Origin: Folioceros fuciformis
Taxonomy: Eukaryota
Assembly: GCA_049999805.1 (NCBI GenBank)
Contig: JBNGIO010006109.1
Location: 62,001 to 82,536 of the forward strand
Direction of reading: 5' to 3'
DNA length: 20,536 nt
Numbering within the stretch: position 1 is the stretch's first letter; every line of letters starts with the position of its first letter. Below, one piece after another: positions 2,534 to 20,536 of the stretch. The notes under the pieces are model-generated. The model did not search any database. It was not told the DNA's origin and saw only the letters and a list, made by a program, of their open reading frames with translations. The position numbers and the translations under genes were made by a program.

Positions 2534-4040
2534 ATGTACAGTCTCATGCATTCGCACTTGGGGCCTGGGATTGAGCAGAGGTTGTATGCAGTGAGGCGAC
2601 CGCTGAAGGCACTGGATTCCCCTTGTTCCTCTCGAGGTGTGTCTGGTTTGGGGTGCAAGTCGAAGTGGGGCTCTTCAGCAGCCGTGTGCTGTCTGGCGAT
2701 GTGGGACGCCCACGCCCGCCCGTGGCCAGCAGTTTTTTCAGCCCCAGGACGATCAGGATTGTTCAGAAGAAATAAAAGCAGGCCACAGTTGGTCGTGTTT
2801 GTGGGTGCCCCCAGCACGGACAGGGAAGCAGAGTCGCAGGCTGGTGACGATTTGCCAGCAGGTAACGGTGGCAGTCAGGAGTATGGGGGTGGAGACGGGC
2901 AAGGAGGCGGGGGTGATGGTTCGGGAGGAGCAATGGGATATGCTTCCAATGGCATCCTCTTCTTTCTATGGGCTGGACTGATAGCGTATGCCGTGGCTCT
3001 AGCACCCTCGCAAACTCCTGTACGTCTGTTTCCCCTCGTGATGCTGGTGTGACACCCCTTTTCCTGAATTCTCACAGCAGCCTGGTGTTGCAGTTCAGGG
3101 ACCAGTATTTCCTTGAGAAGCTGGTATTTTTGAGAGCAGATGATGGGTTTTACATGAACCCAGTGTTGGTCAATGTGTGGTACATCATGGGCATATGGCC
3201 CGTCATCTACACTGCTCTACTTATACCTGGTGGCCGAAGGTTCGTCATCCTACCAGCCTTTGCGGCTGTGCTTGCAATGTCTGACAAGTGTCCAGGAAAG
3301 TCTGACCATGATCATCCCATTGTGGACAGCTCCAAGGGCGGGCCTCCTGTATGGCCCTTTGCAGCTCTGTCCACATTTTTTGGAGCGGGCGCGTTGTTGC
3401 CGTATTTCGCACTGTGGAAGCCACCCGTTCCGCGTGTATCGCAAGAAGAGCTCAACAAGTTGCCCCTCAAAGTTTTGGAGTCTAAAATATTTGCTGCGGT
3501 TGGTTTCTTTTCCTTCGGTGCATTCGTTCCGTTACAAGCTACCCTGTTCCTCACGTACGGATACTGGCTACAGGTTGTTACACTCGCAGTGGTGGCCTTG
3601 TTGGTGACTGGAGGCCTTGCCCCTGCGGACTCGTGGAGGGAGTATATCCAATACTTTAGAGAGAGCAAATTCGTGAGACCATTAGCCTCATCACTCTTCC
3701 GTGTTTTGCACATTACCCGGGTCGCTAATGCGATTTTGTGTGAACAGATTCATGTCATGTCCATCGACTTCCTCACTCTGTCGGTGCTGGCTCCTTTTTG
3801 GGTCTATAACGATTTGGCTGTACGCCGAGGGTACGTACCTCCTTCCACCCGGTTCAGAATTTGTAGCGCGCACTTGTGCTGTACGTGACTAGTTTTCTGC
3901 CTTGCTCCGTGTACAGGCTGGAGAAAAAGTTTTGGCTCGTACCATTGGCAGTGCTCCCCGTCCTTGGTCCGGCTTTGCATTTAGTGTTCCGGCCATCTTT
4001 GCCATCGGAAGTGATAGAGGAAGATGGGATTGAGCTGTAA
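2534..4040 (+). CDS. Conserved multi-pass membrane protein of unknown function, probably plastid-targeted (cyanobacterial DUF2834-like family); exons 2534-3019, 3094-3239, 3330-3498, 3574-3672, 3748-3830, 3917-4040
   Basis: All five introns are GT-AG and phase-consistent. The spliced protein reads LFFLWAGLIAYAVALAPSQTP|FRDQYFLEKL...GRSSKGGPPVWPF...FRESKF|IHVMSIDF...PVLGPALHLVFRP...EL*. The N-terminus is Ser/Arg/Gly-rich. The start codon is uncertain (2534, 2546 or 2699). Confidence 0.8.
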
Positions 4041-4265: not shown

Positions 4266-7067
4266 CTACTGGTTAATGAGAGCGTGCCACAATCCATCAA
4301 CAGGAGTCGATAGAAGAAGTTCAGAGGCATTTTCCTTGGCCACCCACAGGCCCCGTCTCACTTCACTGCCAAGCTGTCCGACGTACCACTCCGCGTAGCC
4401 ATGTAAGACTTGAAGGATGTGAGGAGGATCACCTGTTCTGGAATTGCCCCCACCAGCAGCACTCAAATTTCCCATCCTGTTACTGGGAGCGTTCTCCTTG
4501 GACTCTCGCGCACCTGTCGGCGAGCAGCCCTTCTCCACTTCACCCAAGTCTTGAGATATGTTCAAGCAATTCAGGTGCTGCAGCACGGGTGCAAAATCCT
4601 TTCCCAGGTAAATTCCAGGCATCAGTTCAGTTCCCAGCATTGAGCTGCAAGCCTTCTTCTTCTCCATCCCCTCCACGTTCTTACATCCCGAACATCTGTG
4701 CAGAATCAACCACTCATCTTGTGCAATCGGCCCTCCTACCCCATGGGGAAGCCCTCTACCAACGTTGCCAGAACTTAAAACTTCCGTCTCCCACTGAATT
4801 ACTTTCTCCCTCTGAAAACAGCCGAGCCACGCACACAGTAGCACGAAAGGTGAATATCCATATCATTTTCACGGCAAAAACAACTAACTGCTGATCCACA
4901 TTTGAGCCAGTGCTCCTGAAAAGAATATTTGACCTCCAGGTTCACGTTGAGAATAAGGCCCCGGGATCCACTGCACCTCTGATGCTCATACAGCAATACC
5001 TTCATGATGCAACAGCAAGGTGAGGCAAGCACTGCCTATGAAACGATGGCAAAGGAGATGCAACTACAGGATGCCGGATGTAGGAAACAGCACACAGACT
5101 TACCACGGTACCAAAAAAAAATGGAGAAGGCATAGCATGGGTAGCAACTAGCAGGGTGCCTGGATGAAGGTTTGTCCACCCAAAACGCAACCTACTTCCA
5201 AGCAGGCTGCAGACCCCGGGAGTCCCTCCGTCAGCCTTTCACCTGCTGCACATGAGACTCCTGAAAGCAAACCTACTCTCAGCACTAGCAAAGAAGCTAA
5301 TCATCGCCCCAAACAACATTTCCGCTCCAGATATTCACCAAACTTCATACTGTTCTACTATGTGGACAAAAGTTCTCTTTGATAGTAACCAGCAAACCGC
5401 GACTCCAAGGACCAGATATCCAGCAACTAAGTCCCAACAGTGCTATCCTCCTGATCATACTTGACCGGCCGTACTATCACCCCAACCTGTTTGTATTGCG
5501 GTATTCTTCATCATCCAATGATTTAACATGGTCCCAGCTACTGGATTGCAAACTTATTACAGGAGTGTTTTGAATGCTGCATCGCCATGCCCCAGATCCA
5601 CACAGCAGAAATGAACCAATTCACTTTTTCAGAAACACAAACTTGCAGCATGATCACCCCAGACACAAGACCATGACCCCTAAAAGTGGAACAAGTTTAA
5701 GACTCACCTGCATGATCTTGAAAGGCATCTCTCATCAAGATTTACAAGAAAGCTACAAGGAAAGACTTCTCGCGCTATGGCGAGTCCAGTCTGTAGCTCC
5801 TCGATTATAGCTTGTAGGTTGTAGCCAGTGAGCGCCACATAGCAAGCACACTGTGCAATTCAACCACACGCCTTGGTTAAGCTAAATGGCACAGAGCTTA
5901 ACGAAATATACACTGACTGGCACATATTGGATGGCAGCATGCAGGACTAAACTTGATTCACATGCAAGAGCATCAGAAGGGGACTTGTCTGGGTTCTAGA
6001 GCCAATCAGTACTAGGGAATGGAGATGTCGGTGGAAACAAAATTCATATCGGCCTGGTGAGGACCTATGACATGGCTTCTCATGATAAAAGTCAGAAAGA
6101 AAACCTCTGAGACTAACATCCGGCGTGAAAGATTGAAGGGGTGAAAAAAAAAAAAAGAGAGAGAGAGAGAGAGCATCCCCACCGCAAAGAGAAAACAAAA
6201 ACCGCGTTTTTACCTTAGAATATGATACAATAACAGAGAAAAGCGGCAATGCTTGTGCAATACACCTGTTGCAAACAAAATCGTCTAATCTTTAAATTGG
6301 CTCCCTTGAACAAAACTACATTTTCCTTGACATCATGAAAGGACAAGGAAATCTGGAGCTACAACCCCTTAAGAGTGGACAAAATAGGAATAGCTATAGT
6401 GCTATTAAATCAGACCTGTCCCAACTGCGTTCACACACAAGCCAGCGCTTGAAATCAATACAGGTTCTGGATCCCTCGTTCTCACACATTCAGGACGAGT
6501 CAGTGAGGACATACCAAAATGATGAGAAGGCCCGCAACCTCACAGGAGTATCCTGTCATGGCTTTCCACAGCTGATAGCTGATGGCTGGCCGTGGTGGAG
6601 CCACCGAGAACTTATGAGTGCAGACAGAGCACCTGCATGAGTGACAAAGCTATCGACCGTGAAAGGTCCCAACGTTCACGAGACGGCACAGGGATGAACA
6701 AACAAGCAAAGCAATTGAAAAGTCTTACACAAGAGCAGGTCCCTGACTGGCTCCTGGCCTCCTTGAAGACATAACAGCCCTTTGCCATCGCCTAAGGCAC
6801 TTGAAATGTACAAATGCCTGAGTACCTGCCACACAATGAGCTCATTACGCTGCTGATTCCACGGAGTTGGCAAGAAAGATGCGAGCCTCAGACCATGCTG
6901 ATGAGAAAAGTACCAGAGCAAGCACAAGGAGATATCAAACGATCTTCCTCCATGATCAGAGAGTCTGAGAACTTGGAAAAACTGCTGGCGGCCACAGGCG
7001 ATGACTCCAGACATATGCGACATGTCCCTTCCACTTGCCCTACTCGCGCCATCTTACTTGCCTTCAT
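4266..7067 (-). CDS. RING-CH (RINGv, C4HC3) E3 ubiquitin ligase + transmembrane helix + DUF179 (AlgH/YqgE-like) domain, about 408 aa; exons 7067-6914, 6825-6729, 6632-6515, 5850-5708, 5206-5104, 4999-4934, 4811-4266
   Basis: The RING-CH ligands CRIC...PCACSGT..VHFKCLRRW...CSVC assemble across three exons. A hydrophobic stretch VAGLLIIL|CACYVALTGY follows. DUF179 motifs are GTLLVAT...FFGTV|VLLYEH...GLILN, GGP...LILH and GYAEW..GQL..E...GLW...LW. All six introns are GT-AG and the exons sum to 1227 nt in frame. Confidence 0.75.
6144..6173 (+). repeat. A13 run followed by a (GA)8 microsatellite, intronic
   Basis: Read directly from the sequence; lies in the 5851-6514 intron of the RING-CH gene model. 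Confidence 0.85.
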
Positions 7068-7941
7068 CAAACTATGACGAACCGACTACAGTTAGCACAG
7101 GCCTCCGTGACGTGATCCAATTCTGAAAAGTCGCACATGGATAACGAACACCGCACTTTGCAATCACCACCCGCAACAACTGAAAGAATCGGAAAAATTG
7201 AGGATCTGAGCTAACAATCCTCCAAGTTCCCTGACCCAACTCGGTCACACACACATGACTCCATTAAATCGGATGCCAATTCAACGATACACGCTTCACA
7301 GCTTGGGTGTGAATGAATGGGACCAGTCAACACAACCTGCTGCGCCAGTCCATCCAGATGCCAGAAGAGAGGGCCATCCATTACTCACATCAAAATTCGC
7401 CGACTAGATCCGCTCCTTCTTCAAGGAAGAGCATGTATTGCGAGCGGCGCCAGCCGACACTTATCGATTGTGGATCTCCAAGCTTGCTGCGATATCCGAA
7501 TTGGGCAGAGACAAAGGAAGGCGGCAGGGACGCAATGGCAATGGCAATGGAAGGGAGCGTGATCTCTCAGCAGGATGGAGTTAAAAATGGTGGGCGTCTC
7601 GGAGACGGTCCCGGTGGTAGTGGCAAGGCTGACGTGCGACCACTAGGTGTCCACCGGCCAGATATGCTTTCCGCGTATCTCGTATCTGGCAGCAATTCAG
7701 TTCGCACTAGAAAACAGTACACGCATTTTGCTCCTTGCGCACAGTGTGGTGCATGATGTTTCACGGCTGTGTTGTTGTAATAAAGAACAAGGGCAGCGGC
7801 CGATGTGAAAGGGCTGCAACTCCAGTTCTTTCGTATGAATCTACGTAGGCACCTAACCGTCGTTACTTTCCCGAGCTTCGCGGCGGAACCTGCACACGGA
7901 CAAGACAATAGAGTCGGGGCAGATTAGCGTCAGCAGCAGCT

Positions 7942-11384: not shown

Positions 11385-13670
11385 TTAAGTCTTTTTCTTT
11401 GCCACAACTTTTGGAAAGCACGACAGCCGACTGAATACTGGGCCAGGTTTAGGCAATTCCCCATTCACAAGGGTTTTGGTGTACACCTCCCTGCAGTCGT
11501 GTACAACTTCCTTGGCATCCTTTCTTGGAATGCCCTCACGAAGGGCCACTACTTTCTCCACAACTTCTGGTGGACAATCGGGATGATTGCGAAGAATGTT
11601 GGTATACGCCATGGTAAAAGCGTCGACACTTTCAGCGGATGCTAGCTCTCTCAGCTCCAGCAGCGGCATGAGGGTAGTGTGAACTTGTGCCTCATCAATG
11701 AACCGCTTGAAGAAGTCGGCCAATTGCTCTTCATCTACAATCATCCTGGCAAGAGTTTCCTCTTTGATGTAGTTCCTCTGGGTCAAGAGGCGGTCAGCGT
11801 AAACCACGACCGTCTCTCCTAGACATGCCTCAGCGAACTGCAAGAAAGGCTTCTCCTCCAGGAACGTCTTCACATCTCCAAAATAATCACCATAGGTTGC
11901 AACAAGGTACTCAGTAACCGCTCCGTCATACCACTCTTTCAAGTGAAGCTTAGACACTAACTCCTTCACGCCAGGGTCTTCAAAGATGATACGGACCGTG
12001 CACTGCACAGCGGACTTGGTGAGATCCAAAAAGCCCTGGCAGGTAGCCTCAAAACTGATCTGATCATCATACTCAGAACCAAGATGCTCCTTTATATTGA
12101 TACCGAGATCCCTGGCCAAGGCATGGCAGCGCACGTTGTTGTTGATCATAGCACAGAGCGACTCCAGACCTAGTTGTGCCACAGGCTCTAAAAGCCTCTG
12201 CCCGAGCGCAGCCTGATAACCACTCAACACCTTGATAACAGCAGCAGCGATCTTGAAAATCATCACATCCGTGCTGTTCTGTTCCACATGATGCACCTGC
12301 TCGGTGAGGATGCCGAAAAGATCCACAGCCGCGGGTGTCCACAGCTTCCCGTCTTCTGTCACCTTAGGAGCCGTTGTCTTGTCCGCTTCCAGAATGTTCT
12401 TATACCATTTCTCCATGGTTTCCTGCATTCTTTCCACGTAGACCGCCATAAGAGGCTCCATGCAACCGCTTTCACCACACACCTGCGCCAGTTGCTCGTC
12501 TACTCCAAGGTTCACCAGTTGCACCTGATACTGCACCACCCACGCAGTTACCTTCAAGATCTCAATGTTCGATAGCTCTTTTGCCCTGTCGGCAAGCTTC
12601 CTAAGCATCTGGATGAAACGCTCTGTATATAGCTGGACCATGAGGTGTAAGATGTCGTACCGAGGGGGAAAACAGGGAGCCGCAAAGTCGTAGATATCAG
12701 GCAACTCGAGGGAAATGGCAGTGGCTTCTGCCAAAGCAGCCTTCAGATCCTTCTCCATGACGAGCTTGGTCAGAAGACAGTCAAATCTGGCTTCCACTGC
12801 CAGCCTGATTTTCTCGTAACATATGTCTTTGAAGCCCCTTCTACCCACCACCGGCTTCCCAGACGTACTTGCCCTGGCGGCAACACTCGTCCGCTTCGCC
12901 AATTCAGCTAGCGCGGCAGCTGAAGACGCCTTCCGACTGCCTCTGGCTCCCGAGATACCCGCAATCGGCTGCTGTCCAGCATCCCCAGCCGCCTCTGCAG
13001 CATCTTCTTTGTCCGCCAGCTCTTCCATTTCAACCACCTTGAGTGCACGAACGAGCGTCTGCGGACTCTCTTTAGCAAGCTTCAGAAAGTTCCCGATATG
13101 ACCCCAAAGCGTCTGCTCAAACTTCTCCCTCGTCACATTTACTTCCTCAAAGTACTCCGTCAGCTTGCTGGATTCCTCCTTCCTGGAGGAGGCTGCAGCA
13201 AGCGCAAACCTCCTCTTCCCCTCGAGAGCGGACAGCCTCTCGTAAGTCCTCACCAACTCCCGGTCGTCCGACAAAGACGCTCGGGCTGCTGCAGCCTCCA
13301 CGGAGATGGACATCATACCCTCCACATCCTGAAGCGTCACCGCGATGTTATTCCTTGCGTAGCTCAGCAACTTGATTTGCTCATGGTGTTCGATCAATTT
13401 CTGAGTCTCTCTGCACAGCTTATCGATGCGGCCAAAATCATCCCCAATCTGCGCCACGGTAATCTGAGCCGCCTTCAGCTGCTCGACACCAGCCCTGGCG
13501 TGCTCCACGAGCGTCATGACATCGGCACTGAGCTGCGCATCGTTCGCCTGCAGACGCTGCGCGTAATCGGATCGAATGGAGGCAATGTTGGTGAGGGAGT
13601 CCGGCAGCGGCAGAAGCTTCAACACGTCCCGCCTTGCCGATTCCTTGGCTTCCACTCCCTCATCTTGCAT
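11385..13670 (-). CDS. SEC6: Exocyst complex component SEC6 (EXOC3), 761 aa, intronless CDS
   Basis: The N-terminus [38 protein letters not shown], the internal APCFPPRY and the C-terminal [28 protein letters not shown] match plant SEC6. The ORF is uninterrupted, with the first ATG at 13670. Confidence 0.95.
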
Positions 13671-13802
13671 CTTCACCGACAGAAGGATCCCCGAGCCTCA
13701 AAAAAGAACTGAGTCCAAGAAAGCCCCTCTCCTGTTCCTTGGCAAAATCTTGACGACTCCCTCCCTTACCCCAGCAATGTGACCAACAGCATCCAATATT
13801 TC

Positions 13803-16088
13803 TCAATCCGTGTCTTCATCCTTCTCTTGCTCATCCTCCTCCAGATCATACAACAGCGCCCGCCGCTGCCCGGCAAACACACACGCCAGCCCTCTGGACG
13901 CGCTGACAGCCAGCGGCGCAACCGCCTCCGGTTGCGCCACAGCCCTAGCCTTGCCGTCCTTGAGCCCGACCGACACAAACGCCCCCGCCGAAGAGCACAT
14001 GTGCAGGAGATCCGGGGATCCAGAGGGGACGGGAATCCGCGCGAAAGGCAGCCCGTCCAGGCTCAGAAGCAGGAGCCAGGCCTGCCTGGCTCCGTCTCCG
14101 CCTACCGCCTTCCTCTCGGCCACCAACAGGATGAGCTGCTGGTTCTTGTAAAGCGATAAGTCGATGCAGCAAAGCTCTCCTCCCAGACACACGGCTACCG
14201 CATCAACATAGGCGGCGTCGGCCCCCTGGCTCCTGCTGCACCCGAATCCCCTCATGATCCCCACGGCACAGGGCGCACCAGCAGCGCTCGACTCCACCTC
14301 CATGTTGAAGCAGATGTAGTCCTGCAGCTTCGCCTGCCCCCTCATCCCGCCCTCCTGTTTCACCTCGAAGTACATGTGCGACAGCGGAGGGCCCCTGCCG
14401 TCCCTACACGCTCCGCACAACAAGACGCTGCTCCGGGCGGGGAAATTCGGGGACATGGCCTTCGGTGGCGTGGAGAAAGCCTCCAGGCACCGCTCACACA
14501 AGTCTTTGATCTGGTCGAAGAGCGTCCTCCTAAGAAATCCCTTGTCCTGGAACCCTCCCACCAGAGCCAGCTCCGCCACCCTCAACTCTTCCTCCTCCTC
14601 CTCCTCTTCCTCTCGCTGCAGCTCGCCACCAGCCGCAAGCTGGGGGCCCACCACGTCCTTCAGGAAGTGGGTCCGCAAGAAAGAAGCCACCACGGCGGGC
14701 TCCACCGGCGGCGGCGGATCCCCCTGCGGTACAGCCTCGTTGTTCAGCTGGTAGAGCGCCTTGGTGAGCCAGGCGAGGAAGAGCCGGAAATGGGCTGTGG
14801 CGTCCACCACCATGAGCAGCACCCGCTCGACATGCACCATCACCATCCCGGCGGCATCCACCGCCCGCTCCATCACCTCCTCCTCCAGCCCCACGCTCCG
14901 AAAGCGTTTCCCAGACCGTGACAGCGCCAGCAGCTCCCCAAGCCGGAACGCGATCATCTCCGCCGCGGGCTGCAGGTGCTCCGCAACCACGACGTGCATC
15001 TCCCGACCCACCGCCTCGAAACTCTTCGAGAGGCGCTTAAGCCCGGCCTCGCCCACAGAGGAGGCAAGGAACTGGTGCAGCCCGGACCCGGCCGCGCCCC
15101 CGGCCAGCAGGCTGAAGAGCTCCTCCTGCGGGCTAGCCGCGGACCCGTGGTCCGCCAACAACGCACCCAGCCCCTGGAACTTCTCCCTGAAGCCCCCCAC
15201 GGCGTCCGCCCAGTGCTTCCGCATCACAGCCACCGACGCATGCAGCACCTCCAGCAGCTCGTCCACTCCAGACGTCTGTAGCGCAACCTGCCGGAGCTCC
15301 CGCCTCCGGTCCCCGAGCAGAGCGGTGTCCACGGCGACGCCGTGCATCGCCCTGTCGCTCCCCCCCCGGCACAGCACCGTGAGGTGCCGGAGGTCTGGGG
15401 AGAGCGCCACCCGGAGCACGGCTGGCTCCCGGATCCCAGAACAGAGATGGCGGACGTCGAGGCGGGCCAGGAGGAACACCCCGAACGCGCTGAGGCAAAT
15501 GACGCCACGCTCATCTCCACTCACCAGGACGCTGAGCCGGCGACGGTGCAGAGCCCGAGTGCCGGCCCTGGAGGTGGAGAGAGAGGCGTCGTCCCCAAGG
15601 GCCCCGACTAGGTCGAAGGAGGGCGCCGCCCCGGGCATGGGAGGCGGGCGGGGCGCGGAAGGGAAGAAGCGCGGGGTGCGGTCCTGGAAGAGCATAGGGT
15701 AGAGGGCGTCATCGAGCTGTGCTACCTCCTCTGTCCACTGCAGACACTCCACAGCGGCTTGGTGGACGCGCACGGTGCGCAAGAGCTCGCCGTTCTCCAC
15801 GTCGTGCAGGGAGATGGCGCCGCTGTCGTGGCCCACAGCCAGGGCCTTCCCGTCGGGCCGCCAGCAGATGGCAGTGGCTCGCCGCTCTGGGGATATCGCC
15901 CACAGCCTCTGCCAGTTGAAGCGGTGCACGATCAGCTGATGCTCTCGCGTCACCATCGCTAGCAGATCCTTGTCCACATTCCATGCCGCCACGTCCACGG
16001 CGCCAGACAGCGGCTTGTCCAGGAGCAGCGTGAAGTGCAGTCCGCCGTCCTCGTTCCCGCCCGCCGCTTCCTCCTCCTCCTCCGCCAT
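13803..16088 (-). CDS. APC4: Anaphase-promoting complex subunit 4, 761 aa, intronless and GC-rich CDS
   Basis: The APC4 WD40-type N-terminus WNVDKDLLAMVT...HRFNWQRLW.I...CWRPDGKALAVG...LHDVENG and the C-terminal PLAVSASRGLACVFAGQRRALLYDLEEDE are present. The first ATG is at 16088; the ORF track begins at an upstream TTG. Confidence 0.93.
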   Translation of the reverse strand: MAEEEEEAAGGNEDGGLHFTLLLDKPLSGAVDVAAWNVDKDLLAMVTREHQLIVHRFNWQRLWAISPERRATAICWRPDGKALAVGHDSGAISLHDVENGELLRTVRVHQAAVECLQWTEEVAQLDDALYPMLFQDRTPRFFPSAPRPPPMPGAAPSFDLVGALGDDASLSTSRAGTRALHRRRLSVLVSGDERGVICLSAFGVFLLARLDVRHLCSGIREPAVLRVALSPDLRHLTVLCRGGSDRAMHGVAVDTALLGDRRRELRQVALQTSGVDELLEVLHASVAVMRKHWADAVGGFREKFQGLGALLADHGSAASPQEELFSLLAGGAAGSGLHQFLASSVGEAGLKRLSKSFEAVGREMHVVVAEHLQPAAEMIAFRLGELLALSRSGKRFRSVGLEEEVMERAVDAAGMVMVHVERVLLMVVDATAHFRLFLAWLTKALYQLNNEAVPQGDPPPPVEPAVVASFLRTHFLKDVVGPQLAAGGELQREEEEEEEEELRVAELALVGGFQDKGFLRRTLFDQIKDLCERCLEAFSTPPKAMSPNFPARSSVLLCGACRDGRGPPLSHMYFEVKQEGGMRGQAKLQDYICFNMEVESSAAGAPCAVGIMRGFGCSRSQGADAAYVDAVAVCLGGELCCIDLSLYKNQQLILLVAERKAVGGDGARQAWLLLLSLDGLPFARIPVPSGSPDLLHMCSSAGAFVSVGLKDGKARAVAQPEAVAPLAVSASRGLACVFAGQRRALLYDLEEDEQEKDEDTD

Positions 16089-16234
16089 CGTCGTCGCCAA
16101 TGAAGCGACTCAGAAGACCAGTCCTCCTCAGTTGATTGCATTTGCCACTCACACCGTCTTCCAACTAAAAAAGGGCCAACAACCCACAGAAGAGATCGAA
16201 TTTGTCCTCGGCTCTATCCCTGGACATTCGTAAC
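16089..16234. promoter_or_regulatory. Putative bidirectional promoter (146 bp) between APC4 and the FAD oxidoreductase gene
   Basis: Divergent ATGs at 16088 (-) and 16235 (+), separated by a spacer that is more AT-rich than the flanking CDSs. Confidence 0.5.
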
Positions 16235-18564
16235 ATGTCGCAATTTGGATGCGCACAGGGGAGCCTGTGGGGGCTGGCGGTCCCCGTTACCTGCCCGTTG
16301 CAGGCCAGGGCCACCGTGCGGCAATGCCCTTCTTCGCAACTTGTGCGGGCCATGTCCGTTGCTTCCAAGGATGGACTTCGGAGGTACCGGTTTGCTCTAC
16401 CTGTTACGTGTGCTGGTCCGGTGGACTGGCTGGCCGCTGGAGGCGTGCTGAATCCCTATCGTTTTCCAGGTTCGCGGTTCTCGGGGCAGGGTTTGCAGGG
16501 GTGTCCGTGGCATGGCATCTGTTGCAGGTCAGCTTCAAAGCAGTATGTGGAGGGTGATGATGGTGGATGACGAAGTGCACTGTCCCCGTGACATCCAAGC
16601 TGACATTGGTGGACTTGGTAATGCAATGCAGCACACAACTGCAGCAGCTCCAGTCTGTGTTGAGTTGTACGACGAGGGAGGGATAGGTGCTGGAGCTTCG
16701 GGTGTCTCCGGGGGTTTGCTGCACCCCTACAATCCACAAGGTTCCTACCTTTCCCACTGCTCTCGGGTACGTTGAAGTGCACTTCGTTGTGCCTTCCCTG
16801 ATTCGGTGACAAGATGGTGATGGTGCGTGCCGACAATGCGTGCTTCTCTTTTTCCTTGGGTGTGTGTAGGTAGTCTTTTGTGGAAGGGAGCCGAGGGTTT
16901 TGCCGCAGCATTGAAACTTATCGAAGTTGCCGAGCTATACAGCAGGGGGCTTGCTGAAGACGAGCGCTCTGAGAAACCGGGCCCGGCTGTTGCAAGTGAG
17001 CCCATCGCCTGGCGAAGGTTCGCTTCGAAATGAGTCCAAGCCGTCTGCATAGGTAGCTGGTGTACGTGGCTGGCGTAAGTGTCGTTCAACAGGCCGTGAT
17101 GCCCTCGGTACATGCTGCAGGGGAATTGTGAGACCTGCAATTTTGGAGAAGCATGCAGCAGGCTTTAGAAAGGTGTGACGAGAAGGGGCTTTGCGTCACC
17201 AATGATTCACGACGTGGAGGTTGTAGCCCTACGGCTGTCAGTCGGAGATTTCCAAGCTCACTTTGGTTGGGGCGGAATTCTGTGCAGAACGTGAAGCCAA
17301 GCAGTGGGCAGGGTGTGCTGTGCCTTGATAGCAAGTCCTTGGAACGTCTGGTGCCTGGGCTTCGTGTCCCTACAGAAGATCGTATTGCCCTGCATATGCC
17401 ACTGGGTATAAATGTACATCCGGAGCGTTACCTTCAGGTTTGGATCTGTACGAGCTTAGCGGTGGGTGCAGGTTATGCAAACGTGGCTTCATTCCCAGTC
17501 CTTGGTAGCTGATAAGCCGCTGTGGGGTAAACTTCAAATGTGCTGCAGGCCCTGTGGCTGGCGTGTAGACTATACAGCAAGAAAGCTGAAGCCTCGGGAT
17601 GTGTGGGGACTCAGGCACTGCTCCATCAGGAAAGCATACAGAATCTCTCAAGTCTTGCAGGTCATCATCAGTGCGCATCATCATGGCCCTGTCATGACCT
17701 GAATTAGCACTTCTTCTGGCATCTAACGAAGTGTGGTTGTGTTCCGCACAGGACGATTTGAAGCAGTCGTTGTTTGTGTAGGAGCAAGGGCTTCTCTTTT
17801 ACCGGAACTGGCGGGCAAGCTGCCCATTTCATTTTGCAGAGGCATTGTCGCGGATTTACAGAGTCCAGCATCTGTCAGGCATAGTTCTCATCCGTTTCCA
17901 CCTTTGGCTTGCCGTTCCTTTCATGGCTTTTTGAGCTCGTGCACTTTCGGCTTGTCACTCATGTCTGGGTAGCCTTGGATGCGTGGCAGTTAACATACTA
18001 GTAGCAGTCTTAGCGCAGAGATGATACGCCGGCAGACATACAATCTCATGGCATGCCTGTAGCAGGGAGGAGCACCCGGAGCAGACACCAAGCATATTAG
18101 CGAACACTTGGCTAGCGGTTCAAGGGCGGAGAAATATGGTTATGGGTGCAACCAAAGAATGGGGCCCCACTCATCTGTCAACTCGCCTTTCCCTGGCAGA
18201 AGCCACCGATGCATATGATGTCCTGGTTCAAAAGACCAAAGTTTTCTACCCGCTAATCTCAAGATGGGAGGTGCTGCAAATGCGAGCAGGCGTTCGTGCG
18301 ATGCCACCACGGACGCACATAGGGGCTCTTCCTTTAGTGGGTTGCATCGACAAGTGGGTGATGCCCTCCAACAGCTCAGATGACATGCGTACGAAGTTTT
18401 GGTTCTTCGGAGGTTTGGGAGCCAGAGGTCTGGTGTATCACGGTCTGATAGGCGAGCAGGTAGCACAAGCCGTGGTGACTTCAAATGCCGCTTCGGTCTT
18501 TGTGGAGTGTAGGCAGTGGATTGATGCTGATCCAACTCCATCTATGCCCAGAAGGGTTGTTTAG
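16235..18564 (+). CDS. FAD-dependent oxidoreductase, DAO/glycine-oxidase-like family, probably organelle-targeted, about 467 aa; exons 16235-16383, 16470-16527, 16632-16740, 16870-17017, 17121-17172, 17288-17437, 17549-17660, 17752-17878, 18066-18564
   Basis: Rossmann motif RFAVLGAGFAGVSVAWHL, plus GAGASGVSGGLLHPY, VVVCVGA, RAGVRAMPP...LPLVG and FFGGLGARGLVYH. The exon phases are consistent if the last intron is GC-AG. Confidence 0.85.
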
Positions 18565-19065: not shown

Positions 19066-20536
19066 CTAGAGAAAATGGAGGCCAGAGATGGGCTGCACAC
19101 GGTGGGTGGCGAGATGAAGATGCTCCATGCCCGCCAGGGCCAGAAGCTGCTGATCCGCGAATCCGTAGGCTCGGTTGAATTGCTTGGTGCAGGCCTTGGA
19201 GGAGGAGGAGGCGTACTCCCCGGAGCAAATCTTACAGCCGACGAAATGCGTGACGAAAGGCCACACATCCTGCTCATTCTTGCTGTCGACTAGATTGCCC
19301 TGGGCCTCCCACTTGTCGTACTTGTCCACCAAAATCTGCCAGTAGCCGTGGAGGTAGTATCGCAGCTCCAGGTAGACTCGGAAGAAGTCGTCCTGCGTTC
19401 TGTTCCTGTCCGTCACCACCTTGTTCTCCCGCAGCAGGTACACCAGCGCGCTCTGGTCGTCCGCAGGCCAGCTCTTGGGCCGGGTGGGCAGCTCTGCGTT
19501 CAGCTTGGTGCGTATGGCGAGCTCTTTCGCCGGGTCGCCCATCTGGATCCACCGGTCGAAGAAGTCGAGCGTGAAGTCGCAGTTCTTCATGAGGAAGACC
19601 CCGGCGTTGATTCCGGTCCAGTCGGGGTTGTCACCATACACCTGCACCCACACACACGCGTCGCATTCCCACGTTCATTCCATGGCGGTCCAGGTGAGGG
19701 AAGTCGGTGCATCGTTCTACTTTATCTGCACAACCCAAGCGAAGGCAAGCCAAGGCAAGCCGACAACGTTGGCGAGGCGGTTAGCAGCAGAGCTAGCTAG
19801 CACTTCTCCCACCACACAACACCACACCACACCAGGCCGGCGCTTGCACCCGCAGAGCCATGGCACCAACAGCACGGCGTGAACAGAGGCCGGGAACACG
19901 GCTTCCTTACGAAGCGCCAGAAGCCAGGCGGTGCAGGGGCAACAAAGGCGCGAACCATACCCACCTTGTCGTCGAAGCCGTGGAAAACCATGCGCTTCCC
20001 CCACTTGTCGTAGTCTGTGAACGGGATCTCGAAGGCCATGTCGGTGAACATGGCGTCCCCGTCCATCCACATGAACCACGGGATGTCCGGGAACGTGAGC
20101 ATGAGCTTCTTGAGCAGCCTGTACCTGGCCCACGTCCCGGGCATGCTCTCGTCCCAGACCTCCAGACTGTACCACACCTTGCAGCCGTGGAGGTTGCAGT
20201 AGTCCACCTTGTTCTTGTAGCTCTTCATGAGCATGTGGGAGCCCTCCATGGTCTGGCACCCTGTGGGCCGCTCCGCCGTCACCAGCAAGAAACGGATAGG
20301 CGCCTCCCCGTTACGCTGCAGCGCCGCCCTCTGCATGGAGCGCGTCTGCTGCTGCATCGCCATCGCCCTGGCGCTCATGGTAGCCGCCTTGCTGTACCGT
20401 CTCCCTCTCCCGAGCCCGGACTCGCCATACGCATCCCCATCCCCGCCCCCGCTACTTCCAACCAGCACCCGCCTCCCGGACGCCTCCTCGTCGCTCTCGC
20501 CCGAGTTCACAAAACACAAAAACACAGTACACGACA
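19066..20536 (-). CDS. Glycosyltransferase family GT34 (GMA12/MNN10; xyloglucan xylosyltransferase or galactomannan galactosyltransferase-like), 5'-partial; exons >20536-19965, 19641-19066
   Basis: Motifs KNKVDYC.LHG, WFMWMDGDAMFTDMAFEIP (DxD), W.GINAGVFLMKNC, ADDQSALVYLL, YYLHGYW and WPFVTHFVGCK.C are present. One GT-AG intron spans 19964-19642. The frame stays open to the window edge through a hydrophobic stretch (SCTVFLCFV), probably the type II anchor. Confidence 0.9.

Follow-up and report, generated by a model that had tools for sequence, protein, structure and literature searches.

The minus strand of a 20,536-nucleotide (nt) stretch of Folioceros fuciformis DNA (contig JBNGIO010006109.1 of assembly GCA_049999805.1, positions 62,001 to 82,536; hereafter the window, meaning the whole stretch analysed, with positions counted from its first letter) carries a split gene whose product combines a RING-CH domain, a hydrophobic helix and a DUF179 (AlgH) domain. 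Our reading, to which we give a probability of about 0.7, is that the seven exons form one gene, that the gene belongs to a non-seed land plant, and that it encodes a predicted membrane-anchored RING-CH (MARCH/Doa10-type) E3 ubiquitin ligase of which AlgH/DUF179 forms the C-terminal two thirds. The frame, its spliced transcripts, the domain and fold assignments and the relatives in the databases are described first, followed by the arrangement of the two domains about the membrane and by alternative splicing around exon 4.

Gene model and reading frame

Seven exons and six introns were assigned on the minus strand (7067/7052..4266; Table 1), and they join into a single open frame. All six introns start with GT and end with AG. 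The coding sequence (CDS) after splicing was 1212 nt, and translation from the ATG at 7052 gives 403 amino acids (aa); a start 5 codons earlier, at the in-frame ATG at 7067, makes this 408 aa. Note that the ATG at 7067 is the earliest in exon 1, and that the ATG at 7052 has the stronger context (A at -3 and G at +4). In the spliced protein, the eight zinc ligands of the RING-CH domain, in C4HC3 order (C-x2-C ... C-x-C ... H-x2-C ... C-x2-C), occupy aa 11-83, the hydrophobic core lies at about aa 108-128, and DUF179 extends from about aa 177 to the end. The motifs CRIC...CAC...H..C...C..C, GTLLVA, VVLLYEH, GLILN, GGP and HGYAEWYVGQLGSE..GLW were all read in this frame, and exon 7 contains an insert of about 100 aa, variable by lineage, and a conserved N-A-S (4331-4323). 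The first-pass annotation of the stretch, made from the letters alone, had proposed a 408-aa frame with canonical GT-AG junctions (6515/5850 and 5708/5206 among them) that contains a complete C4HC3 RING-CH, a hydrophobic segment and a series of DUF179 motifs; the rebuilt model reproduced the frame and the same two junctions, and the RING-CH, the hydrophobic segment and every one of the DUF179 motifs were found in it.

Spliced contigs and selection on the frame

Four of 22 sequencing runs were examined as contigs, none being recorded as RNA (all "RNA?", a guess). The contigs of these four runs were spliced, and the runs must therefore contain cDNA. One run (X1) was identical to the window, and three (X2, X3 and X5) were from related organisms with 90-99% identity. 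Variants were dropped from the contigs, forms cannot be ranked by depth in them, and they show presence and not absence; the joints given here are those listed (44 further pieces exist). All six modelled junctions were found in spliced contigs of at least one of the four runs. The joints 6729|6632, 5104|4999 and 4934|4811 were seen in all four, and 6914|6825 in X1 and X2, X3 and X5 having 4 variant letters there. The two junctions already proposed from the letters were also recovered in spliced contigs, 6515|5850 among the listed joints of X2 and X5 only and 5708|5206 among those of X3 only.

Differences from the close relatives were compared for exons 1-6, using those that fall there among the 40 shown (31 more exist): 18 of these 24 were synonymous third-position changes and 6 were not, and within exons 5-6 the synonymous share was 4 of the 6 listed. 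This pattern argues that the frame is under purifying selection, the DUF179 exons 5 and 6 included.

It was also considered that two neighbouring genes, one for the RING and one for DUF179, had been wrongly joined, a reading that could appeal to the stop-containing isoforms terminating before DUF179 (see below) and to the 7 of 33 database entries with one domain only, several of which are flagged partial or are clearly truncated. We rejected it as extremely improbable. Spliced contigs connect the RING exons with the DUF179 exons, exon 4 being joined to exon 5 in contigs of all four runs and in frame in X3; the DUF179 part has neither a start codon context nor a 5' exon of its own, its first strands lying in exons 5-6 right after the linker; both Pfam domains stand in a single chain in 26 of the 33 database relatives; and 18 land-plant proteins are collinear over both parts. 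The single gene proposed at first pass thus holds.

Domain and fold assignments

Pfam profiles were scored on the seven unspliced exon pieces of the window, and the fold work was performed with the closest full-length homolog (P0001, 64% identical) as a stand-in. DUF179 (PF02622) was matched by the last exon alone with 41.9 bits (E-value 1.3e-10, profile positions 55-154 of 157, cut-off 27). RINGv (PF12906), a domain that is cut by two introns, gave 18.8 bits with the exon 1 piece and 17.4 bits with the exon 2 piece, the gathering cut-off being 21.6. No Pfam match was obtained with three of the seven pieces, and one more had sub-threshold chance matches only; the matches to Trp_halogenase, PHAF1 and RNHCP on exon pieces were below the cut-off and were treated as chance. 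Four full-length homologs scored 47-68 bits with DUF179 (profile positions 1-154) and 29-41 bits with RINGv.

The conserved positions were also followed residue by residue. All eight RING ligands, together with P42, G47, L57 and W60, sit in invariant or near-invariant columns of the family. The N-terminal half of DUF179 (the GxLLxA strand, VVLL.EH and G.ILN) is read in frame from exons 5-6 and is gapless against the homologs, with G182, L185, F196 and G214 kept. In the 105-member family alignment, the window protein keeps 26 of 26 invariant or near-invariant columns.

The structure of P0001 was predicted from the 105-row alignment, with a predicted local distance difference test (pLDDT) of 83.4 and a predicted template modelling score (pTM) of 0.63; the model from a 19-row alignment was poor (pLDDT 56) and was not used. 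The model consists of a confident RING (blocks with pLDDT 83-97), a 30-residue helix (96-125), a second helix (130-147), a disordered linker (153-175) and a confident DUF179 (most of residues 180-371 with pLDDT >85). In a Foldseek search against the PDB, ranks 1-8 were all UPF0301/AlgH structures (2ew0, 2haf, 2gs5, 2aj2, 2mui (AlgH itself), 2hrx, 2gzo and 2do8; E-value 7.5e-10 to 1.1e-4, TM-score to target 0.56-0.71). The RING-CH domains of c-MIR (2d8s) and Doa10 (2m6m and 8pda) followed at ranks 9-11, and that of K3 of Kaposi's sarcoma-associated herpesvirus (KSHV; 1vyx) at rank 14, with E-values of 0.021 (2d8s), 0.036 (2m6m) and 0.53 (1vyx) and TM-scores to target of 0.55-0.67. A search of the ESM Atlas returned a RINGv cluster only, at 0.79, which is under the meaningful level. 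The RING-CH and DUF179 assignments of the first-pass annotation were thus borne out by Pfam profile, for RING-CH through the collinear homologs and the family members, and by fold on the 64%-identical stand-in. The product of the locus is predicted from these comparisons to be a membrane-anchored RING-CH protein with an intact AlgH-fold domain.

Distribution of the family

When the last exon was searched among longer proteins, 4 matches were obtained, all with both PF02622 and PF12906. The spliced model aligned end to end with four homologs (moss, lycophyte and Ginkgo among them) at 64.0, 58.4, 60.2 and 54.7% identity over 349-382 aligned columns, and there was no indel at any exon junction. 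A profile made from four homologs found 33 proteins at E<=1e-5. The named members were from Marchantia polymorpha (Mp_4g10100), two Riccia species (R1flu_014263 and R1sor_013914), Physcomitrium patens ('uncharacterized protein isoform X2'), Ceratodon (M758_4G230700), Diphasiastrum (O6H91_12G026800), Ceratopteris (KP509_06G026800), Ginkgo (Gb_21776), Taxus (KI387_017759) and Cryptomeria (LOC131073032), and further from Closterium (partial), Chara (partial) and Tetraselmis; among the distant members, names were found for Coccomyxa, Scenedesmus and one dinoflagellate, the remainder being environmental. When 1.84 billion cluster representatives were screened exhaustively with a profile, 17,649 matched at E<=0.001, of which 2,691 reached E<=1e-10 and 83 reached E<=1e-30; the weaker matches will include single-domain proteins. 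Both domains were detected with our own profiles in 154 of 174 fetched proteins, and Pfam detected RINGv in 104 and DUF179 in 103 of the 105 aligned members.

The land-plant proteins share RING-CH, one hydrophobic helix, an acidic helix, a cysteine-bearing linker and DUF179 with a variable insert, all in the same order; they are collinear with the window protein (43.5-55.4% identity, BLASTP) and are single branches of one clade, and they differ in the insert before the last DUF179 strands, the length of which varies by lineage. All have automatic names only ('hypothetical protein' or 'RING-CH-type domain-containing protein'). The window protein formed its own branch (end branch 0.37) in a 24-row tree, among lycophyte, moss and liverwort sequences and inside the group made up by the 19 land-plant rows (support 84/92, not starred), and it shares the cysteines and the N-A-S sequon of the land-plant clade (see below). 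This placement fits a non-seed land plant. By the alignments and the tree, the window protein is an ortholog of the unnamed liverwort, moss, lycophyte, fern and gymnosperm proteins, and the land-plant orthogroup belongs to a far larger, algal family in which these two domains are combined. The window protein itself was not in the protein collections searched.

As for the Marchantia protein Mp_4g10100 (P0018), 23 residues (VLLYEHQRCSGSRGLVLNKEAGE in Riccia) that match the 66-nt exon 6 are missing at around residues 195-200. The annotation has probably skipped a micro-exon here, or it describes an isoform with a disrupted DUF179 core.

No angiosperm RING-DUF179 protein was found either in the profile search (33 proteins at E<=1e-5) or in a search with the Cryptomeria protein as query (26 at E<=1e-10), both of which were word-indexed with the 8000 best candidates scored, and RING-DUF179 is likely to be absent from flowering plants. 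The parts of an Arabidopsis DUF179 survey that were available (PMC8889267) give three members and mention no RING.

No description of a protein with RING-CH and DUF179 was found in the literature searched, which had subscription journals mostly outside it and did not cover supplements. The statement at first pass that no characterised protein with this architecture was known therefore stands as far as that literature goes; the uncharacterised entries that it had left open do exist, in a large family (83 representatives at E<=1e-30, as above). The architecture is thus already in public databases under automatic names, and it is a variant of the membrane RING-CH ligases.

Arrangement about the membrane

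A single hydrophobic stretch was located in the window model, at aa 103-130 (17-residue window) and with a core of about 18-21 aa. MARCH ligases have a two-helix hairpin with both ends in the cytosol; two transmembrane helices directly after RING-CH, the mark of the MARCH type, were not found in the window model. The linkers between the two domains were classified for 155 two-domain proteins, the window model included. A hydrophobic segment was absent in 28, some of these linkers being only 6 aa long; two segments, or one of at least 34 aa, were found in 76; one segment of 27-33 aa in 31; and one of at most 26 aa in 20. All the land-plant proteins were in the single-segment classes (17-33 aa across rows). 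The classes without a linker segment and with two-helix-like linkers suggest that both domains lie on the cytosolic face in most of the family.

The land-plant proteins have further features in common. Over the 15 residues that follow the segment the net charge was acidic in all 18 proteins, and over the 15 that precede it the net charge was basic in 16 of 18; of the 76 C-terminal flanks in the two-segment class, 35 were positive, 22 had no net charge and 19 were negative. After the helix, cysteines stood at four positions in 13 of 13 land-plant rows and at four more in 8-12 of 13, the other members having 0-2, and the median number of cysteines after the RING was 11 in land plants vs 4 in the others. 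An N-A-S sequon near the C-terminus was present in 13 of 13 land-plant rows vs 0 of 91 others. These flank charges, cysteines and the sequon fit a type II protein with a DUF179 that would be translocated, oxidised and perhaps glycosylated. At about even odds, we propose that the land-plant clade is type II, with the RING cytosolic and DUF179 lumenal or extracytosolic. For the algal relatives we place both domains in the cytosol. It had been argued from the single helix that DUF179 would be on the opposite face from the RING; this stands in part, in that the features of the land-plant clade fit such a flip, and it does not extend to the wider family, which seems to have the two domains mostly on the same face.

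DUF179 may instead be cytosolic next to the RING as in the algae, the hydrophobic stretch being a monotopic or re-entrant anchor or pairing with the amphipathic helix that follows it, and the cysteines being metal-binding or lipid-modified. We lean against this arrangement but take it as a serious possibility. The two classes without a segment (28) and with two segments (76) among the 155 proteins point to an ancestral arrangement with both domains on one face, the land-plant stretch of 17-33 aa is followed by a confident helix (130-147) in the P0001 model, and cytosolic domains are rarely functional once moved to the lumen. Against it, the hydrophobic core of about 18-21 aa is too short for a hairpin, the C-terminal flank is net acidic in every one of the 18 land-plant proteins, and the gain of the N-x-S site and of the additional cysteines coincides with the second segment being lost.

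Alternative splicing around exon 4

Stop-introducing forms that lack DUF179 were prominent among the contigs. When the cassette in intron 3 (6265-6214) is included, the frame reads ...LLIIL followed by 16 hydrophobic residues and a stop, which gives a 134-aa RING-CH protein with a hydrophobic tail; its joints were 5850>6214 (X1, X2 and X3) and 6263>6513 (X1 and X2). A longer variant uses an acceptor at 6424 (joint 6424>6515, X1 only) and has a stop after four codons. The extension of exon 5 reads R-S-L-M-C-S-R-stop (seven codons, TGA) and gives a 172-aa product without DUF179; its acceptor, 5260, was joined to exon 4 in all four runs (joint 5259>5707, cut +1), and exon-5 contigs continued through the extension to 5263 in X1, X2 and X5. 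In Physcomitrium, isoform X2 (P0011) has in-frame insertions at both of the junctions that flank exon 4, one of them being a second hydrophobic stretch. The three premature-stop splice events flank exon 4 and are shared between the organism of the window and related ones. Intron 3 also has, at about 6136-6182, a (CT)n tract with a T tract after it; this stretch was passed over as a repeat when the contigs were placed, and the X1 contigs break there.

Splicing at the introns flanking exon 4 also yields stop-containing mRNAs, which would either be translated into RING-plus-anchor proteins without DUF179 or be degraded. A stronger version of this is that the sampled tissues make mainly stop-containing mRNAs (for the 134- or 172-aa RING-plus-anchor proteins, or for nonsense-mediated decay), that the full-length form is minor and perhaps conditional, and that splicing is an on/off switch for DUF179. 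The 5260 acceptor with its stop after 7 codons in every run, the exon-5 contigs that traverse the extension in three of them and the stop-bringing cassette in X1, X2 and X3 speak for it, as does the in-frame 5708|5206, listed only in X3 (depth 26.6 vs 17.7 for the alternative); the insertions of the Physcomitrium protein at the same two junctions further indicate that variable splicing at these introns is old. We nevertheless consider this version rather unlikely, since the contigs have no abundances, their variants were dropped and the joint listing is partial, and since the DUF179 exons are intact, keep all the conserved family columns and changed mostly synonymously between close relatives, and since green algae and gymnosperms alike, with the groups between them, have kept the full-length architecture.

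Proposed function

In the reading that we prefer, the N-terminal RING-CH would recruit a ubiquitin-charged E2 in the cytosol, the helix would anchor the protein in an endomembrane, and DUF179 would be the specificity or sensing part, which selects the targets of ubiquitination or switches the ligase. The role of DUF179 is proposed because two other systems, Lon of E. coli and plastid Clp, link the domain with regulated proteolysis. E. coli yqgE promotes dormancy, lon is epistatic to yqgE and YqgE is proposed by the authors to modulate Lon proteolysis (PMC11634777, in which an in silico disulfide-isomerase prediction for YqgE is also cited); in Arabidopsis, DUF179-1 and DUF179-3 co-purify with the Clp chaperone CLPC1 as its interactors and are adaptor candidates (PMC8889267); a DUF179 protein was pulled down with 2-Cys peroxiredoxin (PMC13102171); and algH mutants of P. 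aeruginosa are HOCl-sensitive, AlgH being termed a putative redox sensor (PMC7950407). With the fusion to an E3 ligase, the AlgH fold has a third, independent tie to a degradation machine.

AlgH/DUF179 is found in 35% of 2,421 bacterial genomes (PMC11634777) and also in plastids, and it has eight solved structures and no biochemical function. A conserved and repeated fusion to an E3 can be taken as a Rosetta-stone hint that DUF179 takes part in substrate choice or in the control of proteolysis, in agreement with the links to Lon and ClpC1. The apparent change from the two-helix or soluble linkers to one helix amounts to a natural experiment on the transfer of a domain across a membrane. Marchantia and Physcomitrium are standard laboratory model plants, and the idea is directly testable since both have members of the family. 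Absence from the angiosperm matches would explain why the protein was never met in Arabidopsis work.

Several points weigh against the proposed reading. As to the gene, the four runs have no RNA record, though their contigs are spliced; the listed joints of the window-identical run X1 at 6515|5850 and 5708|5206 are the stop-introducing alternatives only; and the DUF179-less form may be at least as abundant as the full-length form in X1, X2 and X5, which the contigs cannot rank. As to the domains, neither exon piece reaches the RINGv cut-off by itself, and the fold was assigned on the stand-in P0001 and not on the window protein. As to the membrane, the family-wide pattern (28 soluble and 76 two-segment of 155) argues that DUF179 acts beside the RING in the cytosol, which makes a flip in land plants an unusual claim, and the additional cysteines, rather than pairing as disulfides, could be zinc ligands of a cytosolic domain. 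As to function, the link between DUF179 and proteolysis comes from genetics and co-purification, without a mechanism.

A wider picture may be drawn, which as a whole we regard as improbable. DUF179/AlgH would serve generally as a module that passes proteins, or a signal of redox state or stress, on to degradation machines (Lon in bacteria, Clp in plastids and ubiquitin in algae and non-flowering plants). The loss of a helix in land plants would have moved the module across the membrane, where it gained disulfide cysteines and a glycan site, giving a type II ligase that reads the lumen and ubiquitinates on the cytosolic side. Splicing would switch the module off or, in moss, add a second helix, and the gene would have been lost in flowering plants.

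Feature coordinates and neighbouring genes

The coordinates of the gene and of its alternative exons are given in Table 1.

Table 1. Features of the RING-CH-DUF179 gene (positions are those of the window)
Feature	Position	Strand	Content or basis
5' untranslated region (5'UTR) intron	7072..7388	-	upstream non-coding exon to 7389; GT at 7388, AG just before 7071
Exon 1	6914..7071 (CDS from 7067 or 7052)	-	first half of RING-CH, CRIC ... CAC
Exon 2	6729..6825	-	middle of RING-CH: H-x2-C, conserved CL..W
Exon 3	6515..6632	-	final C-x2-C of RING-CH, basic juxtamembrane stretch, first half of hydrophobic helix
RING-CH overall	7022..6620	-	exons 1-3
52-nt cassette exon	6214..6265, within intron 3	-	spliced contigs, translation
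Exon 4	5708..5850	-	second half of hydrophobic helix, acidic amphipathic helix, first land-plant-specific cysteines
Hydrophobic helix overall	6547..6515 + 5850..5821	-	divided by intron 3
54-nt exon 5 extension	5207..5260, alternative acceptor 5260	-	spliced contigs, translation
Exon 5	5104..5206	-	linker and start of DUF179 (HPGTLLVAT...FFFGTVV)
DUF179 overall	5175..4269	-	exons 5-7
Exon 6	4934..4999 (66 nt)	-	DUF179 core, VLLYEHQRCSGSRGLILN
Exon 7, coding part	4266..4811, stop 4266-4268	-	remaining DUF179: GGP, HGYAEW..GQL..E..G.W

The 5'UTR intron is based on the loose end of an X1 contig at 7071, which maps to 7389-7418 of the window. The X1 contig with exons 1-3 is 4280 nt long and extends about 3.9 kb past 7071; this extension is either a long leader or a merger with the transcript of a neighbour.

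A convergent neighbour was found on the plus strand at 2917-4040 (open frame 2917-3830, GT..AG intron 3831-3916, stop 4038-4040), its last coding piece being the plus-strand open reading frame 3867..4040 with the end given by frame count. No Pfam match was obtained with its 323-aa piece. Its stop is about 225 nt from that of the RING-DUF179 gene, so that the 3' ends must overlap, and one X1 contig spans both. A 3'UTR intron of the RING-DUF179 gene at 3831-3916 was rejected, as its GT..AG is on the plus strand and belongs to this neighbour. On the minus strand, two long intronless open frames (11385-13697 and 13803-16109) lie 105 nt apart, one being exocyst subunit Sec6 (330 bits) and the other APC/C subunit 4 (130 + 93 bits); the second is in DNA with 61-69% G+C vs 43-55% around the RING-DUF179 gene. 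A fragment of glycosyltransferase family 34 (GMA12/MNN10-type galactosyl transferase, 54 bits) and a weak sub-threshold match to an FAD (flavin adenine dinucleotide) oxidoreductase were found at 19066-19674 (minus) / 18025-18564 (plus). The glycosyltransferase match fits a plant genome.

Comparison with known systems

The Arabidopsis proteins DUF179-1 (AT1G33780), DUF179-2 (AT3G19780) and DUF179-3 (AT3G29240) are plant DUF179 proteins as well. DUF179-1 and DUF179-3 are linked to a protease system as stromal interactors of CLPC1, none of the three is described with a RING in the parts of the survey that were available (PMC8889267), and a precedent for DUF179 beyond the cytosol and stroma may lie among them. 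The last-exon search among longer proteins returned only the 4 RING-DUF179 proteins, and the Arabidopsis paralogs are therefore not close.

The bacterial AlgH/YqgE (UPF0301) proteins belong to the same Pfam family and have the same fold, and GxLLxA, GGP and G.A.W..GQL..E..G.W are kept in the window protein. They are, however, stand-alone chains of 175-193 aa, whereas the window protein has the RING and the helix ahead of DUF179, an insert of about 100 aa and 6-8 extra conserved cysteines. Their assigned roles are only predicted in the available parts of the reports, as a disulfide isomerase (PMC11634777) and as a redox sensor (PMC7950407).

An N-terminal C4HC3 RING-CH followed by membrane helices is shared with the MARCH/MIR proteins (human MARCH8/c-MIR and KSHV K3) and with Doa10/SUD1. 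One RING-DUF179 relative is labelled 'Membrane associated ring' by UniRef, and the linkers of most algal relatives have two segments, which resembles the two-helix hairpin of MARCH. Beyond the RING there is no similarity, and DUF179 was on none of the MARCH/Doa10 matches found; the land-plant clade has one helix, in contrast to two in MARCH and fourteen in Doa10. If the type II arrangement is right, the land-plant proteins would resemble the PA-TM-RING ligases (RMR and RNF13/GRAIL) in combining a domain for recognition in the lumen with a single helix and a RING in the cytosol. The order is mirrored, however, as the lumenal domain comes first and RING-H2 last in the PA-TM-RING ligases, and the RING subtype is different and the lumenal fold unrelated.

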